Shown here in pieces: positions 3,015 to 11,982 of a DNA stretch of 37,546 nt. The stretch is taken from IMG/VR virus record IMGVR_UViG_2713896773_000006, positions 1 to 37,546 of that record; one strand, 5' to 3'. The stretch comes from a virus. Taxonomy: Duplodnaviria; Heunggongvirae; Uroviricota; Caudoviricetes. The position numbers and the translations under genes are program-made. Every line of letters begins with the position of its first letter. The first letter of the stretch is position 1. The notes below the pieces were generated by a model. The model ran no database searches. It saw only the letters and a program-made list of their open reading frames with translations, and was not told the DNA's origin.

Positions 3015-3257
3015 TTACTTGCCGAGTGCCTTGTCGATGGCGGAACGAGCCATATCAAACTCATCTGTTTGACGGTCTGCTACTCTAACTACAGCCTGCA
3101 GAGCTTCCAGTAATTCAGGCGCTGCAGTAATGAGAGTCTTGTTTTCCTTTCTCGTCATTTCAAGTGGATATCCCTTTCCAAAGACTATGTGATGCTTGTT
3201 TCCCAAGCCCTCTTCATCCCAAAACCACGGACCGGGAGTTCCTTTAAATTCGCTCAT
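3015..3257 (-). CDS. hypothetical protein, [16 protein letters not shown] family (paralog A)
   Basis: 80 aa, [11 protein letters not shown]...[10 protein letters not shown]...KALGK; paralogous to the ORF at 3903..4190. Lies between kil-like and gam. Confidence 0.55.
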
Positions 3258-3260
3258 AAC

Positions 3261-3410
3261 TCACTTCCTGTGCCACGGAAAACCAATTGCCGCCTTCATA
3301 TCGTTGTAGGCTGACATCCACATTTCACTATCACCAATAAATCGGGCTATTACTGCTTTGTTCTGTGCAGCACGAAGCATCTGGTGATTAATGGCTATTT
3401 CATTGTGCAT
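3261..3410 (-). CDS. kil: Kil-like small protein (putative host cell-division inhibitor)
   Basis: 49-aa ORF below the track cutoff: MHNEIAINHQMLRAAQNKAVIARFIGDSEMWMSAYNDMKAAIGFPWHRK. GGAGG RBS. Resembles lambda Kil (FIGD... core, recalled) and sits where kil sits between cIII and gam. Confidence 0.4.
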   Translation of the reverse strand: MHNEIAINHQMLRAAQNKAVIARFIGDSEMWMSAYNDMKAAIGFPWHRK

Positions 3411-3529
3411 AACGCCTCCAGTTGTTTCTTTGCTGCTCTGATTAATTGTTTAACTCGGCGTGATAATTCAGATTCGTGCGGGTAGAAAGCGGACATGACG
3501 CCGCTACCCGCGAGCTGAAAGTGCATCAT
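3395..3529 (-). CDS. cIII: CIII-like protein (putative FtsH inhibitor stabilising CII)
   Basis: 44-aa ORF from ATG at 3529 with AAGGAG RBS: MMHFQLAGSGVMSAFYPHESELSRRVKQLIRAAKKQLEALCTMK. Same pattern as lambda CIII (AG...PSESLLERI.RKL, recalled). The 79-aa track ORF has no RBS for its longer start. Confidence 0.5.
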   Translation of the reverse strand: MMHFQLAGSGVMSAFYPHESELSRRVKQLIRAAKKQLEALCTMK

Positions 3530-3592
3530 GGGTAACTCCTTATATTTGATTGCATAACGAAAACGCCTCAAGTGAAGCGTTATTGGTATGCA

Positions 3593-3619
3593 TATAAAAA
3601 AGCCCTCACACTGGAGGGC
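3593..3619 (-). terminator. putative intrinsic terminator inside the leftward early operon
   Basis: Minus strand: GCCCTC-cagtgt-GAGGGC hairpin followed by TTTTTTAT. Confidence 0.4.
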
Positions 3620-3714
3620 AAAGAAGATTTCCAATAATCAGAACAAGTCGGCTACTGTTTAGTTACGAGCGACATTGCTCCGTGTATTCACTCGTTGGAA
3701 TGAATACACAGTGC

Positions 3715-6845: not shown

Positions 6846-7722
6846 GTTAGCTGATTACAGGCATAACCCTGTACAACATCAGGAGGCATCCAGTATGGGG
6901 TATGTCTCTATACACCGCCAGTTTATGGACAGCAGGCTCTATAAGGACTCTCAGGCAGTACATCTTTGGCTTCACTTAATCCTCAAGGCTAATCACGAAT
7001 CTACTGTCGTCAATACGGATATCGGTCCGATAACTGTTGATCGCGGTCAGATGATAACTGGACGCCCGTCGCTGGTCAGAGAAACATTCATCCCCGACAA
7101 CAAAGTTAGGAGCTTATTACGGACTTTTGAGTCGAAAGGGATGCTTAATATTTGCTCGATGGGGAAGAAATTTAGCCTGTTTACAATCGTTAAATATGAC
7201 GATTTTCAGGCAAAAAATTGTCCAACGGTTGTCCAACGGTTGTCCAACGCAAACACCAGTAATGGCGCGGCTCTCAGCGGAGATTGTCCAACGGTTGTCC
7301 AACGGTTGTCCATAAACAATAATATAAATAATATCTCTAATACTGACGTATTAGAGAGTGCCACAGCAGACAAAAAGTCTGACAAGAAAAAACCTTCCGT
7401 CAGCTGTCAGGATGTTGTCGATGCTTACCACGAAATCCTTCCTGAAGCGCCAAGAATCCGCGCACTGAATGACAAGCGTAAAAACCAGATCCGAACGTTC
7501 TGGCGCAAAGCCGGAGTGATAACCCGCCAGCTTGACGGGCATGGGTTCACGATGCAGGACTGGAGAAATTATTTGAGCTACGTAGGCGAAAATTGCCGAT
7601 GGATGTTCGAAGAGCGCCCAAACCATCAACGCGGAACCGTCTGGCACAAAAAGGGATTTGATTTCCTGCTTAACGACAATACCTACCTGAAAGTTCGTGA
7701 GGGTGAACACGATGACCGATAA
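6832..7722 (+). CDS. replication initiator (lambda O-like / P22 gp18-like), iterons embedded
   Basis: 296 aa directly upstream of, and overlapping, the DnaB-type helicase gene. The central coding region carries direct repeats, as ori does inside lambda O. Alternative start ATG 6895 has a GGAGG RBS. Confidence 0.7.
   Translation: MGVVKLADYRHNPVQHQEASSMGYVSIHRQFMDSRLYKDSQAVHLWLHLILKANHESTVVNTDIGPITVDRGQMITGRPSLVRETFIPDNKVRSLLRTFESKGMLNICSMGKKFSLFTIVKYDDFQAKNCPTVVQRLSNANTSNGAALSGDCPTVVQRLSINNNINNISNTDVLESATADKKSDKKKPSVSCQDVVDAYHEILPEAPRIRALNDKRKNQIRTFWRKAGVITRQLDGHGFTMQDWRNYLSYVGENCRWMFEERPNHQRGTVWHKKGFDFLLNDNTYLKVREGEHDDR
7218..7345. repeat. candidate replication origin: about six TTGTCCAACGG iterons in two clusters plus an AT-rich tract
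   Basis: Directly visible: TTGTCCAACGG at 7218, 7229, 7240 (variant), 7284, 7295, 7306 (partial), then ATAAACAATAATATAAATAATATCTCTAATA. Confidence 0.6.
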
Positions 7723-10177
7723 TTTTTATGCGCCGCCCCATAGCATCGAGGCAGAGCAGGCGGTGATTGGTGGATTGCTTCTGGATGATGACAGCAGTGA
7801 GCGCGTCCAGAAAGTTCTAGCGATGCTGAAGCCCGATTCATTTTACAGCAGATCACACAAAATCCTTTTCGAAGAAATAACCAGAATGCACCGGGAGCAA
7901 AAGCCAGTAGATGGCCTGACGCTTTTCGATGAACTGGAGCGTAAATCGTTAACGGCGTCTGTTGGCGGTTTTGCTTATATCGCTGAGATCGCAAAGAACA
8001 CGCCAAGCGCCGCAAACATCGTTGCCTATGCAATGCAGGTTCGTGAAACCGCAATGGAACGCTACGCCATCAACCGCATGACTGAAGCGACGGAATTGCT
8101 CTATTCCCGCAACGGAATGACTGCAACGCAGAAGTACGAAGCTATTCAGGCGATTTTCACGCAACTGACAGACCATGCAAAAACCGGATCGCGTCGCGGC
8201 CTTCGCTCATTTGGTGAGGTCATGGAAGACTGGGTTAGCGACCTTGATAAGCGATTTGACCCGTCAGGCGAACAACGAGGAATGAGCACAGGAATACCAT
8301 CGCTGGACAGGATGCTGTCACCGAAAGGTCTGGTGAAAGGCTCTCTGTTTGTCATTGGCGCTCGCCCTAAGATGGGGAAAGCGCAACCGCTTAATTCACG
8401 CATTTTGCTTGCTGATGGTTCATGGACAACATTTCGTGACGTATGTGTTGGAGATTCCCTAGCATCAGTGGATGGACAACCATCATTCGTGTCTGGAGTT
8501 TTTCCTCAAGGGGAGCGAGATATTTACCGAGTTACGTTCTCTGACGGAAGAACCGTTGATTGCGCGGATGATCATTTGTGGGAAATTCATAGTAACCGTA
8601 TTACCGGTGGCGTTGATGTTGTAGACACCTGCCGCCTACGGGACATGATGGAATGCGTTCGCTATCAAAGCCGCATTCATGTTCCTGGTATTAGCGGTGA
8701 CTTCGGATTGCCTGTTGATTTAGGGATTAGCCCATGGCTGTTAGGTGCGTTACTTGGCGATGGAAATCTTGCAGGTACGCCACGAATCAGCATGACGGAA
8801 CCATACATCATTGAGCGAGTAAGATCTGAAGTGGGTGACGATATTGAAGTCAGACATGTTTCTGGCTGCGATTACTCCCTACCTCACAAGTTTAGCCGCA
8901 AATTATCTCTTACGCGGGTTATGCAACGGCTTGGTATCTACGGCCGGATGTCAGAGATTAAAATTATCCCGGATATTATTTTTTCTGCTGATAAGCAAAC
9001 TCGTATTGATGTTCTATGCGGATTACTTGAAACCGATGGTTGGGTTGAAGGAAATAATGCCCTGCGCTTTAGCTCGGCAAGCAAGTTCCTGTCAGATGGT
9101 GTAAAGCGGCTGGTGCATTCTCTTGGTGGCGTGTGTCGTATGACAACCAAACAGGAGCCGAAATTCAGTTATAAGGGAGAAATGCGCAAAGGTATGGATG
9201 CCCATATTTGCGCAATCAGGTTGCCTGATGAGGTTCTATCACACATAAAATCTCCACGCCTGAAGCAAAAATTCACTGCAAAACGCATCAAAACAAGTGA
9301 GCCTGTTATCACGTCGGTTGAGTATATTGGACGTGAAGAGTGCATTTGCATCATGGTATCCCACGAGAGACATTTGTATGCAACTGACGGATACATTCTA
9401 ACCCACAACACCACGCTATACAGCCAGATGGCAATCAATTGCGCAGTGCATGAGAAAAAGCCCGCTCTGATGTTCAGCCTTGAAATGCCAGGTGATCAGA
9501 TACTGGAAAAACTGGTAGGGCAGAAGTCTGGTGTTAACCCGAATATTTTTTACCTTCCGGCGACAAATGACGCCGATGACGGCTATCAGGGTGATTACGA
9601 TGGTGACTTCAACAGGGCGATCGAAACAGCCAATCGCTTGAGTGAAATCGACATGCTTTACATCGACGACACGCCGGGATTATCTCTGGCTCAAATCGTC
9701 AGCGAAAGCCGTCGAATCAAGCGAGAAAAAGGATGTGTTGGCATGATTCTGGTCGATTACCTGACACTAATGACCGCTGAGAAGGCCGATCGCAACGACC
9801 TTGCTTACGGCATGATCACCAAAGGACTGAAGAACCTTGCCAAAGAGCTTGATTGCGTTGTTGTGCTTCTGACACAGCTTAACCGCGCACTGGAAAGCCG
9901 AACCAATAAACGCCCATTACCAAGTGACTCACGAGATACAGGGCAGATTGAACAGGATTGCGATTATTGGGTCGGGATCCATCGTGAAGGCGCTTTTGAT
10001 GACAGTGTTCCACCTGGGGAAACCGAACTAATCCTTCGTCTCAATCGTCATGGCTATACCGGCACGGTGTATTGCATTCAGGCAAATGGCGCTATTTATG
10101 ACACAGACCAACAGTCTGCTGAAATGCGCCGCCGTGAACGTGAGGAACCGCAGTCCAAGAAGAAAGGAGGATTCTGA
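7712..10177 (+). CDS. dnaB: DnaB-family replicative helicase with an intein in the P-loop
   Basis: N-terminus MTDNFYAPPHSIEAEQAVIGGLL is DnaB-like. The Walker A is split: ...GARPKMGK | 343 inserted aa | TTLYSQMAINCAVHEKKPALMFSLEMP... (E. coli DnaB ARPSMGKTTFAMNL...LIFSLEMP, recalled). ATG at 7712 preferred over the GTG track start 7697. Confidence 0.9.
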   Translation: MTDNFYAPPHSIEAEQAVIGGLLLDDDSSERVQKVLAMLKPDSFYSRSHKILFEEITRMHREQKPVDGLTLFDELERKSLTASVGGFAYIAEIAKNTPSAANIVAYAMQVRETAMERYAINRMTEATELLYSRNGMTATQKYEAIQAIFTQLTDHAKTGSRRGLRSFGEVMEDWVSDLDKRFDPSGEQRGMSTGIPSLDRMLSPKGLVKGSLFVIGARPKMGKAQPLNSRILLADGSWTTFRDVCVGDSLASVDGQPSFVSGVFPQGERDIYRVTFSDGRTVDCADDHLWEIHSNRITGGVDVVDTCRLRDMMECVRYQSRIHVPGISGDFGLPVDLGISPWLLGALLGDGNLAGTPRISMTEPYIIERVRSEVGDDIEVRHVSGCDYSLPHKFSRKLSLTRVMQRLGIYGRMSEIKIIPDIIFSADKQTRIDVLCGLLETDGWVEGNNALRFSSASKFLSDGVKRLVHSLGGVCRMTTKQEPKFSYKGEMRKGMDAHICAIRLPDEVLSHIKSPRLKQKFTAKRIKTSEPVITSVEYIGREECICIMVSHERHLYATDGYILTHNTTLYSQMAINCAVHEKKPALMFSLEMPGDQILEKLVGQKSGVNPNIFYLPATNDADDGYQGDYDGDFNRAIETANRLSEIDMLYIDDTPGLSLAQIVSESRRIKREKGCVGMILVDYLTLMTAEKADRNDLAYGMITKGLKNLAKELDCVVVLLTQLNRALESRTNKRPLPSDSRDTGQIEQDCDYWVGIHREGAFDDSVPPGETELILRLNRHGYTGTVYCIQANGAIYDTDQQSAEMRRREREEPQSKKKGGF
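8381..9409 (+). mobile_element. intein (343 aa) with LAGLIDADG homing-endonuclease domain, probably class 3
   Basis: Insert begins with Ala and ends ...ILTHN, with +1 Thr. Two LAGLIDADG-like motifs (LLGALLGDGNL, LCGLLETDGWV). Block-B-like DDHLW, block-F-like Cys (EECICIM) and Thr before the terminal His-Asn give the WCT pattern. Boundaries inferred from the extein alignment. Confidence 0.8.
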
Positions 10178-10484: not shown

Positions 10485-10931
10485 ATGAAGCAAATATACA
10501 TGCTTCGCAACGAAGCAATCAGAAACAACGCCATAGACGCAATACTCTCACTTCCGATCGACGACAAGTCACCTCACGAAGTCCACGTTAGAGAACCCAA
10601 ACGCAGCAAAGCGCAGAATGACCGTATGTGGCCGATGCTGAACGATGTTTCGCGTCAGGTGCTATGGCATGGTCAACGGCTGGCGCCGGAAGACTGGAAA
10701 GACCTGTTCACTGCCCTGTGGCTTAAGACCAAAAAACTGGAGCAACGAAGTGTGCCTGGTATCGACGGTGGCGTTGTCATGCTTGGCGTGCGTACCAGCA
10801 AAATGCGAAAGGCCAGCATGACTGAGCTTATCGAAATCATGTTCTGGTTCGGCTCAGAGCGCAACGTGCGGTGGAGTGATGACTCCCGGCGAGAGTATGA
10901 ATGGTCACAACGAAAAGGGAAGGCTGCATGA
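10485..10931 (+). CDS. ninB: NinB (Orf-family recombination mediator)
   Basis: 148 aa; QNDRMWPMLNDVSRQVLWHGQRL...WSD matches the lambda NinB pattern (QNRKLWACLGDVSRQVEWHGRWL, recalled). Confidence 0.85.
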   Translation: MKQIYMLRNEAIRNNAIDAILSLPIDDKSPHEVHVREPKRSKAQNDRMWPMLNDVSRQVLWHGQRLAPEDWKDLFTALWLKTKKLEQRSVPGIDGGVVMLGVRTSKMRKASMTELIEIMFWFGSERNVRWSDDSRREYEWSQRKGKAA

Positions 10932-11455
10932 CTATCAAATCAAATACGCCGGCGTCAGATAGGTATCGGCTTATTGAGGATTATCTGTATTTAGACGGAG
11001 ATACAGTCAGATACAAAAAGGACTCGCTAAAACACCCCAACCACAGCCACCGGGCCGGAGATGAAATTAAAACATCGATAAATGGATCTGGGTATAGACA
11101 GGTGTGTTTTGCAGGCATTCAGATGTTTGTTCACGTAGTTGTTTTTGCGCTGCACAACAAAAGAATGCCATTGAAAAATATTGACCATATTAACGGAAAC
11201 AGGCTGGACAATTCCCCAAAAAATCTTAGGGAGGCAAGCCGGATAGCAAACAGCCGAAATCAGAAAACTAAGTGCAATAGCCGTTCTGGAATAAAAAATG
11301 TTTTATGGAACAAGCAAAAAAATAAATGGGCCGTTCAAGTGCGCACAGATTTTGGCCGGTTGCATTTTGGGTTCTATGAAGATCTTGAGCTTGCTGGTTT
11401 GGTTGCCAGTGAGTCTATCAACAAATATCACGGACAATATGCGAGGGTTGAATGA
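10928..11455 (+). CDS. HNH endonuclease with AP2-like DNA-binding domain (free-standing homing-endonuclease type)
   Basis: ATG at 10928 overlaps the ninB stop. HNH motif context (IDHINGNRLDNSPKNL) followed by an AP2-like segment (GIKNVLWNKQKNKWAVQV...FGFYEDLELA). Locally AT-rich relative to neighbours. Confidence 0.75.
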   Translation: MTIKSNTPASDRYRLIEDYLYLDGDTVRYKKDSLKHPNHSHRAGDEIKTSINGSGYRQVCFAGIQMFVHVVVFALHNKRMPLKNIDHINGNRLDNSPKNLREASRIANSRNQKTKCNSRSGIKNVLWNKQKNKWAVQVRTDFGRLHFGFYEDLELAGLVASESINKYHGQYARVE

Positions 11456-11982
11456 TTAAGCATAAATCAGAAACACCAAAAGAAGTTAGAGACTGCTGGC
11501 AAACGCCGCTTTGGCTTTTTGATGCACTGGATATTGAGTTTGGATTCTGGCTGGATTCAGCTGCTAGCGACAAAAATGCTCTGTGCGCTCACTGGCTAAC
11601 TGAGGCCGACGACGCGCTCAATTCTGAGTGGGTAAGTCACGGTGCAATCTGGAATAACCCACCGTACAGCAATATCAGGCCGTGGGTGGAAAAAGCAGCT
11701 GAGCAGTGCATACAACAGCGACAGACGGTAGTTATGCTTGTGCCAGAGGATATGTCAGTCGGATGGTTCAGCAAGGCTCTGGAGAGTGTCGACGAAGTTC
11801 GCATTATCACTGATGGACGGATTAATTTTATCGAACCATCGACAGGGCTGGAGAAGAAGGGAAACAGCAAAGGCTCCATGCTGCTGATTTGGCGACCGTT
11901 CATCAGTCCTCGACGGATGTTTACTACCGTATCCAAAGCGGCATTGATGGCGATCGGGCAGGGCGTCGTGAGGGCGGCATGA
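11452..11982 (+). CDS. phage DNA N6-adenine methyltransferase (Dam-like)
   Basis: 176 aa with the catalytic NPPY motif ([10 protein letters not shown]); ATGA-coupled on both sides. Confidence 0.8.

Follow-up and report, generated by a model that had tools for sequence, protein, structure and literature searches.

Class 3 inteins are defined mechanistically, by a thioester branched intermediate on a cysteine in block F (position F:4) that is absolutely required, and are recognized in sequence by a non-nucleophilic residue 1, Trp at B:12, Cys at F:4, Thr at G:5, and Ser or Thr at the +1 position (PMC2807308; restated in PMC3196547). Insertion of an intein into a P-loop has been called 'classic' (PMC5050341), and in the mycobacterial DnaBi1 intein, at 'site b', the +1 residue serves both the P-loop and splicing (PMC6195587). 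Here we analyze a stretch of 37,546 nucleotides (IMG/VR record IMGVR_UViG_2713896773_000006, positions 1 to 37,546; hereinafter, the window) that comes from a P22-like Escherichia coli prophage and in which the gene for the DnaB-type replicative helicase is interrupted, at positions 8381-9409, by an insert of 343 codons. Located at the P-loop of the helicase of a complete-looking prophage, the insert is very likely a class 3 intein of full length, with a LAGLIDADG homing endonuclease nested in it, that both splices and homes. Class 3 inteins, P-loop sites, and intein-borne LAGLIDADG endonucleases are already established; this copy is undescribed.

In functional terms, the mycobacterial DnaB site-b intein (6BS8 and 6RIX) is the nearest parallel: it occupies the same site and belongs to the same class but has no endonuclease. 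The mycobacterial and phage inteins share the host protein family, the insertion point between the Walker A Lys and Ser/Thr, the Trp-Cys-Thr (WCT) signature, the THN end, and the fold of the splicing domain, for which Foldseek gives template modelling (TM) scores TMt of 0.85 with 6RIX and 0.84 with 6BS8; Cys323 of the phage intein (intein numbering) falls on their block F Cys. In contrast to the phage intein, they are mini-inteins, reside in the cellular DnaB of Actinobacteria, and have Ser at +1; over the N-terminal half, sequence identity is about 27%. DnaBi1 has a redox partner, Cys48, that lacks a counterpart in the phage intein, where the aligned stretch reads GERDIY.

The prototype of the class, the MP-Be DnaB intein of mycobacteriophage Bethlehem, was compared through its published residue numbers. 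It is likewise full-length (341 vs 343 amino acids), of phage origin, and hosted by a P-loop ATPase; Ala1, His65, and Trp67 have identical numbering in the two inteins, and Cys320, Thr339, and Asn341 of MP-Be DnaB correspond to Cys323, Thr341, and Asn343 (PMC2807308). Unlike the phage studied here, Bethlehem is an actinophage, and splicing, branched intermediates, and the requirement for Cys320 have been shown experimentally for its intein (PMC2807308). In the 30-45 kb stretch of the Bethlehem genome, the DnaB-like gp62 carries no intein; the prototype must therefore be encoded in another part of the genome. The only intein in this stretch is a separate one, in the gp52 'phosphoesterase' (L003, 7578..9296, minus strand), with a Cys after ...HD, an end reading ...HLTGN/S (here and below, the slash marks the splice junction or insertion point), and a penultimate Gly; it looks like a class 1 intein, apparently the one studied as 'RDF' in PMC5050341.

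Among sequenced phages, the closest relative is found in the P primase-helicase of the Stx2 phages Min27 and phi24B, and also in Shigella SfV-like prophages; this intein is 46% identical over 343 amino acids. It is alike in architecture, in Ala1, DHLW, ECLCIMV, and THN/T, in its location after the P-loop Lys, and in residing in E. coli lambdoid phages. However, its host is a toprim primase fused to a gp4-like helicase, unrelated to the DnaB family, and its flanks read GVNGHGK/TEVV, so that the homing site differs. InBase has listed an intein under the name 'EP-Min27 Primase'. The phi24B intein is mentioned in PMC3430580.

In whole-protein fold and in the two LAGLIDADG motifs, the phage helicase intein resembles PI-SceI (yeast VMA1), PI-PfuI, and TliVMA, which, unlike it, belong to class 1 and start with Cys1; their length exceeds that of the phage intein by about 110 amino acids, sequence identity is about 15%, and some of their extra DNA-binding elements are probably missing from the phage intein. 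A literature search turned up no paper describing an intein in an HK620-type helicase, the 2011 survey of Tori & Perler lying outside that search. That survey reportedly broadens the definition of class 3 and proposes a phage origin for it.

An insert in the Walker A motif of the phage helicase

The interrupted gene is the lambdoid P gene (Table 1). The mechanically delimited open reading frame (ORF), 7697..10177 on the plus strand, has a GTG start at 7697 and encodes 826 amino acids; the true start is probably the ATG at 7712, with GAGG upstream, and the 821-amino-acid product from this ATG is exactly GenBank KPO19587.1 ('helicase DnaB [Escherichia coli]'). Pfam identifies the DnaB N-terminal domain at residues 13-117 of the ORF (PF00772) and DnaB_C at residues 572-792 (PF03796), and the match to the NCBIfam profile TIGR03600 ('phage replicative helicase, DnaB family') reaches 557.4 bits, above the cut-off of 498.65. 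The TIGR03600 match restarts at profile position 208 right after the insert (residue 572), as would be expected of an insert that interrupts the helicase without loss of host sequence.

A preliminary description of the window, made from the sequence alone, had read this gene as a helicase whose Walker A loop is split by a 343-amino-acid intein that starts with Ala and ends in His-Asn before a +1 Thr. The boundaries proved to be exact. GARPKMGK runs up to nucleotide 8380 and TTLYSQ starts at nucleotide 9410; the insert lies in frame between Lys and Thr, with GCG (Ala, 8381-8383) as its first codon and CTA ACC CAC AAC (Leu-Thr-His-Asn) as its last four, followed by ACC (Thr+1). Removal of the insert restores Walker A as GARPKMGKTT in the protein and leaves a gene of exactly 1452 nucleotides (2481-1029). 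The GC content at third codon positions is 0.40 in the insert vs 0.54 and 0.51 in the exteins, which fits a separate history for the insert.

The alternative that the preliminary description named, an ordinary DnaB linker, is ruled out by close homologs that lack exactly this stretch. The same helicase, at 98-99% identity, is encoded in 87 phage records, including HK620, Stx2 phage 86, VT2-Sakai, mEp506, and HK542 (P genes), and all of these align in two pieces that skip 8381-9409. Compared with P of the cultured phage HK620 (98% identity), there are 24 substitutions, and the insert is the sole gap.

In RefSeq, the intein-bearing helicase is annotated in fragments. In all three genomes inspected, the RefSeq Prokaryotic Genome Annotation Pipeline (PGAP) reports two 'incomplete; partial in the middle of a contig' pseudogene fragments (3016-3684 and 4714-5481 in L001; 2338-3000 and 4030-4764 in L004 and L005), and none of the 18 genomes carrying the intein DNA has any annotated feature under the 1029-nucleotide intein. 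The pseudogene call is an artefact of protein-alignment-based annotation that leaves the intein region blank.

Table 1 Coordinates, in the window, of the helicase, the predicted parts of its intein, the candidate homing site, and additional genes
Feature	Position	Strand	Remarks
Helicase precursor gene (lambdoid 'P', DnaB family)	7712..10177	+	821 amino acids, 91.8 kDa, from ATG 7712
N-extein	7712..8380	+	223 amino acids: DnaB N-terminal domain (PF00772), linker, first half of Walker A (...GARPKMGK)
Split homing site (candidate), left half (AAGATGGGGAAA)	8369..8380	+	Sole upstream stretch identical in both intein-bearing allele types
Intein	8381..9409	+	343 amino acids, 38.3 kDa, 1029 nucleotides: HINT splicing domain split by LAGLIDADG endonuclease domain
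Splicing block B (GRTVDCADDHLWEI)	8546..8587	+	His65 (B:10) 8573-8575; Trp67 (B:12) 8579-8581; DDHLW is residues 63-67
LAGLIDADG motif 1 (LLGALLGDG, residues 120-128)	8738..8764	+	Asp127 aligns with PI-SceI Asp218
Endonuclease block D (IKIIP)	8957..8971	+	Lys194 aligns with PI-SceI Lys301; K194 and P197 invariant
LAGLIDADG motif 2 (LCGLLETDG, residues 212-220)	9014..9040	+	Asp219 aligns with PI-SceI Asp326; D219 and G220 invariant
Splicing block F (EECICIMVSHERHLYA)	9338..9382	+	Cys323 (F:4) 9347-9349; Cys321 9341-9343; aromatic Tyr333 follows
Splicing block G and junction	9398..9412	+	Leu340-Thr341 (G:5)-His342-Asn343, then Thr+1 (ACC, 9410-9412), also the Walker A Thr
C-extein	9410..10177	+	255 amino acids and stop: remainder of RecA-like ATPase domain (TTLYSQ...)
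Split homing site (candidate), right half (ACCACGCT)	9410..9417	+	C at 9412 is a synonymous marker
Free-standing HNH endonuclease gene	10901..11455	+	PHROG 99, E 7e-42; between ninB and DNA methyltransferase gene
O-acetyltransferase gene, low-GC block	32987..34180	-	PHROG 3333, E 1e-71; GC 0.336 in 33001-34000

The splicing domain and the class 3 signature

A phmmer search against PDB chains matched the insert to the helicase intein 6RIZ, a gp41-1 variant (E 1.5e-8), to the class 3 inteins DnaBi1 of M. smegmatis (6BS8, E 1.8e-6) and DnaB-1 of M. chimaera (6RIX, E 4.5e-6), and, over the endonuclease part, to 1UM2, 1EF0, and 1DFA (PI-SceI; E 6e-4). The HINT matches (E 1.5e-8 to 1e-5) bear out the assignment to known inteins. 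All five sequence features of class 3 are present, namely, Ala1, Trp67, Cys323, Thr341, and Thr+1, so that the WCT pattern recognized in the preliminary description holds, in a splicing domain that aligns with the class 3 inteins 6BS8 and 6RIX. The residues concerned are strongly conserved: H65, L66, and W67 are invariant in 18 of the 18 aligned homologs, and THN/T is found in 14 of the 14 that are complete.

The preliminary description had also pointed to a block F cysteine in EECICIM. A cysteine is indeed there; its position needs refinement because ECICIM (residues 320-325) contains two, in the sequence CIC. In the HMMER alignments with 6BS8, 6RIX, and 6RIZ, it is Cys323, not Cys321, that shares a column with their block F Cys, which is taken as the catalytic F:4 Cys (Cys118 in M. 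smegmatis DnaBi1). Position 323 is Cys in each of the 14 homologs that cover the column; position 321 varies (C/A/M/T). The predicted class 3 nucleophile is therefore Cys323, the second Cys of CIC, with Cys321 as a variable extra.

Other cysteines recur outside the class 3 definition. Cys61 in block B (VDCADDHLW; 8561..8563) is retained in 14 of the 18 homologs, and the CxC pair of block F is found in about half of them; these residues may be structural or might form a metal or redox site.

The nested endonuclease domain

Modelling of the intein with AlphaFold from the single sequence was unusable (predicted local distance difference test score, pLDDT, 34.5) and was rerun with an alignment of 18 sequences, which gave an AlphaFold2 model with a pLDDT of 91.7 and a predicted TM score of 0.91. 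The top Foldseek matches of this model in the PDB are full-length intein endonucleases, PI-SceI (E 1e-16, TMq 0.72) followed by TliVMA, PhoVMA, and PI-PfuI; the endonuclease lobe matches I-DmoI and I-Tsp061I. By both model and Foldseek matches, a two-lobed alpha-beta-beta-alpha-beta-beta-alpha endonuclease fold is nested in the splicing domain. Both the HINT and the LAGLIDADG folds are thus recovered, and the two LAGLIDADG-like motifs noticed at the outset are located at residues 120-128 and 212-220.

Through Asp127, Lys194, and Asp219, the phage intein aligns with Asp218, Lys301, and Asp326 of PI-SceI (Table 1), which we take to be the catalytic residues of that enzyme. The three residues are invariant or nearly so in homologs at 27-50% identity, which argues for long-term selection on nuclease activity.

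Distribution of the intein

This helicase allele is found in 391 of 5,426 complete E. coli genomes, and 16 of the 391 have the insert. The insert DNA is present at 99.4% identity or more in 18 E. coli genomes, that is, these 16, denoted type 1, together with ET846 and ET791, and an IMG/VR scan yielded 10 further intein-bearing contigs with both types of exteins. At the protein level, the 90% cluster of KPO19587.1 comprises 449 proteins, which come from E. coli, Salmonella, and Shigella. A word-indexed protein search with the intein gave 28 matches and missed the exact full-length protein, which an exact look-up recovered; a scan of one genome per species revealed no close relative of the intein, and in the phage collection the intein itself was not detected, the best tblastn identity being 46%. 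A similar helicase (P0001) has a 50% identical intein at the equivalent site, and homologs at 27-40% identity are located in bacterial DnaB, PhoH-like, UvrD-like, and terminase proteins.

All 12 fully read copies of the intein are intact ORFs (the window, L001, L004, L005, L011-L016, L019, and L020). They differ at 3-6 of the 1029 nucleotides, and motif residues are never affected; the changes within the population comprise 6 non-synonymous and 4 synonymous ones, none in motifs. A different arrangement is seen in P0002 (565 amino acids; contig of 235,726 nucleotides, NCBI/Logan), where the intein, preceded by the helicase N-extein, breaks off after ~109 residues and continues in frame into a 'phage stabilisation' protein resembling P22 gp10 (PF11134). 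Apparently, an extensive internal deletion in a decayed prophage eliminated everything from mid-intein to the head genes.

Evidence of recent mobility

In ET846 and ET791, the same intein, different at 6 of 1029 nucleotides (99.4% identity), resides in a second helicase allele ('type 2'), the exteins of which are only 66% (N-extein) and 70% (C-extein) identical to those of the window at the DNA level. The identity between the two allele types collapses 12 nucleotides upstream (AAGATGGGGAAA) and 8 nucleotides downstream (ACCACGCT) of the junctions. The type 2 allele occurs without the intein in 7 genomes, so that empty sites are known for both allele types.

A degenerate scan for the empty site recovered at least 120 loci. 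Among the matches listed, the type 1 empty sites, at least 100 in number, all read GAAA/ACG, whereas the intein-bearing type 1 alleles with a visible right flank read GAAA/ACC in seven cases out of seven, a synonymous change. The ACC marker is thus seen in 7/7 intein-bearing vs 0/100 empty type 1 sites among these matches (Fisher p = 4e-11). The type 2 empty sites among the matches listed mostly read GGTAAA/ACC; the intein-bearing type 2 alleles read GGGAAA/ACC, a combination that is also found in at least 2 type 2 empty sites. The exchange boundaries accordingly lie 4-12 nucleotides upstream and 3-8 nucleotides downstream of the insertion point, and boundaries this tight in diverged flanks point to breakage at the insertion point itself. 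On the simplest reading, the intein entered by break repair from a GGGAAA/ACC donor, with only 3-4 nucleotides co-converted.

Judging by these alignments, the intein looks recently mobile. The preliminary description had called it potentially mobile; the near-identity of the intein across diverged exteins, together with the linked flank marker, goes beyond that claim. The population signature is consistent with homing. The freed intein or the precursor would cut intein-less helicase alleles at about AAGATGGGNAAA/ACNACGCT (the empty site in HK620 P reads ...CCTAAGATGGGGAAAACGACGCTATAC...), and repair from an intein-bearing copy would spread the intein among co-resident lambdoid and P22-like phages. 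In ET846 (NZ_CP100895.1), of which L004 represents one copy, two places match both the intein and the type 2 helicase. This strain may carry two intein-bearing prophages, as expected if homing occurred inside a polylysogen.

Proposed splicing pathway

By homology with characterized class 3 inteins, we propose that the 91.8-kDa precursor would be translated with a split, presumably inactive ATP-binding loop. Ala1 would be unable to start splicing; instead, the thiol of Cys323, aided by His65 and Trp67, would attack the Lys-Ala1 bond, yielding a thioester branched intermediate. The N-extein would then move to the hydroxyl of Thr+1, forming a standard branched intermediate, and cyclization of Asn343, assisted by His342, would release the 38.3-kDa intein. 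Finally, an O-to-N acyl shift would remake GARPKMGK-TT in the 53.5-kDa helicase. Thr+1 doubles as a P-loop residue and the splicing nucleophile. Such phages rely on a DnaB-type helicase of their own; with Walker A split, splicing would be expected to be a prerequisite for phage replication.

Alternative explanations

Several observations weigh against an actively splicing and homing intein. We infer, by homology, splicing, the Cys323 thioester, and DNA cleavage alike. The Pfam profile LAGLIDADG_3 scores 22.5 bits, exactly at its cut-off, and Hom_end_hint is below its own (19.2 vs 32.1 bits), so that the case for an intein rests on the PDB matches and the fold, not on Pfam. The 6:4 ratio of non-synonymous to synonymous changes does not demonstrate recent purifying selection. 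None of the 87 phages with this helicase carries the intein, vs 16 of 391 E. coli genomes, which makes the viability of an intein-bearing phage presumptive; at the genome frequency of 4%, about 3.6 intein-bearing records would be expected among the 87, and their absence is weak evidence because those records are highly redundant. The same low prevalence, unlike that of an aggressive homing element, would suit an intein that splices but has a dead or irrelevant endonuclease and was spread among mosaic lambdoid phages solely by homologous recombination, whether ordinary or mediated by phage functions (RecT/Erf-type). Such phages recombine constantly, the prophage encodes RecT, the substitution ratio reveals no clear constraint, and LAGLIDADG_3 only reaches the cut-off. 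We nevertheless regard this explanation as unlikely, given that the counterparts of Asp218, Lys301, and Asp326 are kept at 27-50% identity, implying long-term selection on the endonuclease, and that exchange boundaries so close to the insertion point, in flanks of 66-70% identity, arise far more easily from a break at the site than from random crossovers.

A decaying, non-splicing intein in a helicase pseudogene of defective prophages, as the RefSeq annotation implies, appears highly improbable. It would agree with the two incomplete fragments reported by PGAP, with cultured phage records that lack the intein, with at least one prophage in which a truncated intein is fused to a head gene (P0002), and with the precedent of a class 3-like intein pseudogene in Arthrobacter, Arth_1007 (PMC3196547). 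However, Arth_1007 lacks the F:4 Cys (PMC3196547), whereas here the frame is open over 821 codons in every full copy examined and all catalytic residues are in place; the PGAP call is an annotation artefact, the prophage has a full gene set, and for the intein to have reached a second allele so recently, the system must be functional. We therefore rejected a pseudogene as the principal interpretation. There is even less room for a different splicing route, either a class 2-like attack of Thr+1 on the N-terminal junction or one with Cys321 as the internal nucleophile. Ala1 also fits the class 2 (KlbA) inteins (PMC2807308), and the two Cys of CIC lie two positions apart on one strand, in a CxC pair that recurs in many relatives; yet class 2 is known only in KlbA, which lacks the WCT triplet (PMC2807308; PMC3196547), 6 of the 14 homologs have Ala, Met, or Thr at position 321, compared with Cys at position 323 in all 14, and it is Cys323 that aligns with the presumed catalytic block F Cys of 6BS8 and 6RIX.

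Prophage context

The prophage resembles HK620, Sf6, CUS-3, and Huey and looks like a complete P22-like E. coli prophage, with genes for integrase, RecT, CI, O, P, NinB, terminase, portal, coat, ejection proteins, and tailspike. Downstream of the helicase lies a free-standing HNH endonuclease gene that, compared with phage Min27, represents a clean insertion of ~540 nucleotides (roughly 10954..11490) between flanks that are 96-98% identical; the insertion is present in one of 139 other loci examined (L049). The replication/nin region thus probably contains, besides the intein, another homing element that is independent of it. Between the tailspike gene (31180..32940) and the integrase gene (34529..35692), a low-GC block encodes an O-acetyltransferase, likely an O-antigen-modifying moron of foreign origin.

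Implications

Beyond splicing and homing, the intein might be more than a passenger, acting as a conditional switch and a competition weapon, a notion that we consider a long shot. Such sensitivity has been shown for mycobacterial DnaBi1, and in the phage intein, splicing could likewise respond to redox state or zinc through Cys321 and Cys323, together with the largely conserved Cys61; if so, lytic replication would be gated post-translationally by the state of the host. The endonuclease could also act against lambdoid phages that are co-resident or superinfecting, by cutting their helicase genes where these lack the intein; the target of roughly 20 bp is present in more than 100 sampled alleles, and such cutting, if it occurs, would amount to marker exclusion in a tractable E. 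coli system.

The concept of class 3 inteins remains unchanged; the value of the finding lies in a tractable system and in the correction of annotation. The latter is useful in surveys of prophage completeness, where pseudogene labels can make intact prophages look defective. The population data provide a snapshot of recent intein movement between diverged alleles, with conversion tracts of a few nucleotides. Helicase alleles with and without the intein, 98% identical and found in P22/HK620-type and Stx-type E. coli phages, constitute a natural experimental system that would permit in vivo tests of class 3 splicing, homing, and co-conversion, where earlier tests of class 3 splicing and homing were mostly conducted in mycobacteria or with artificial reporters.

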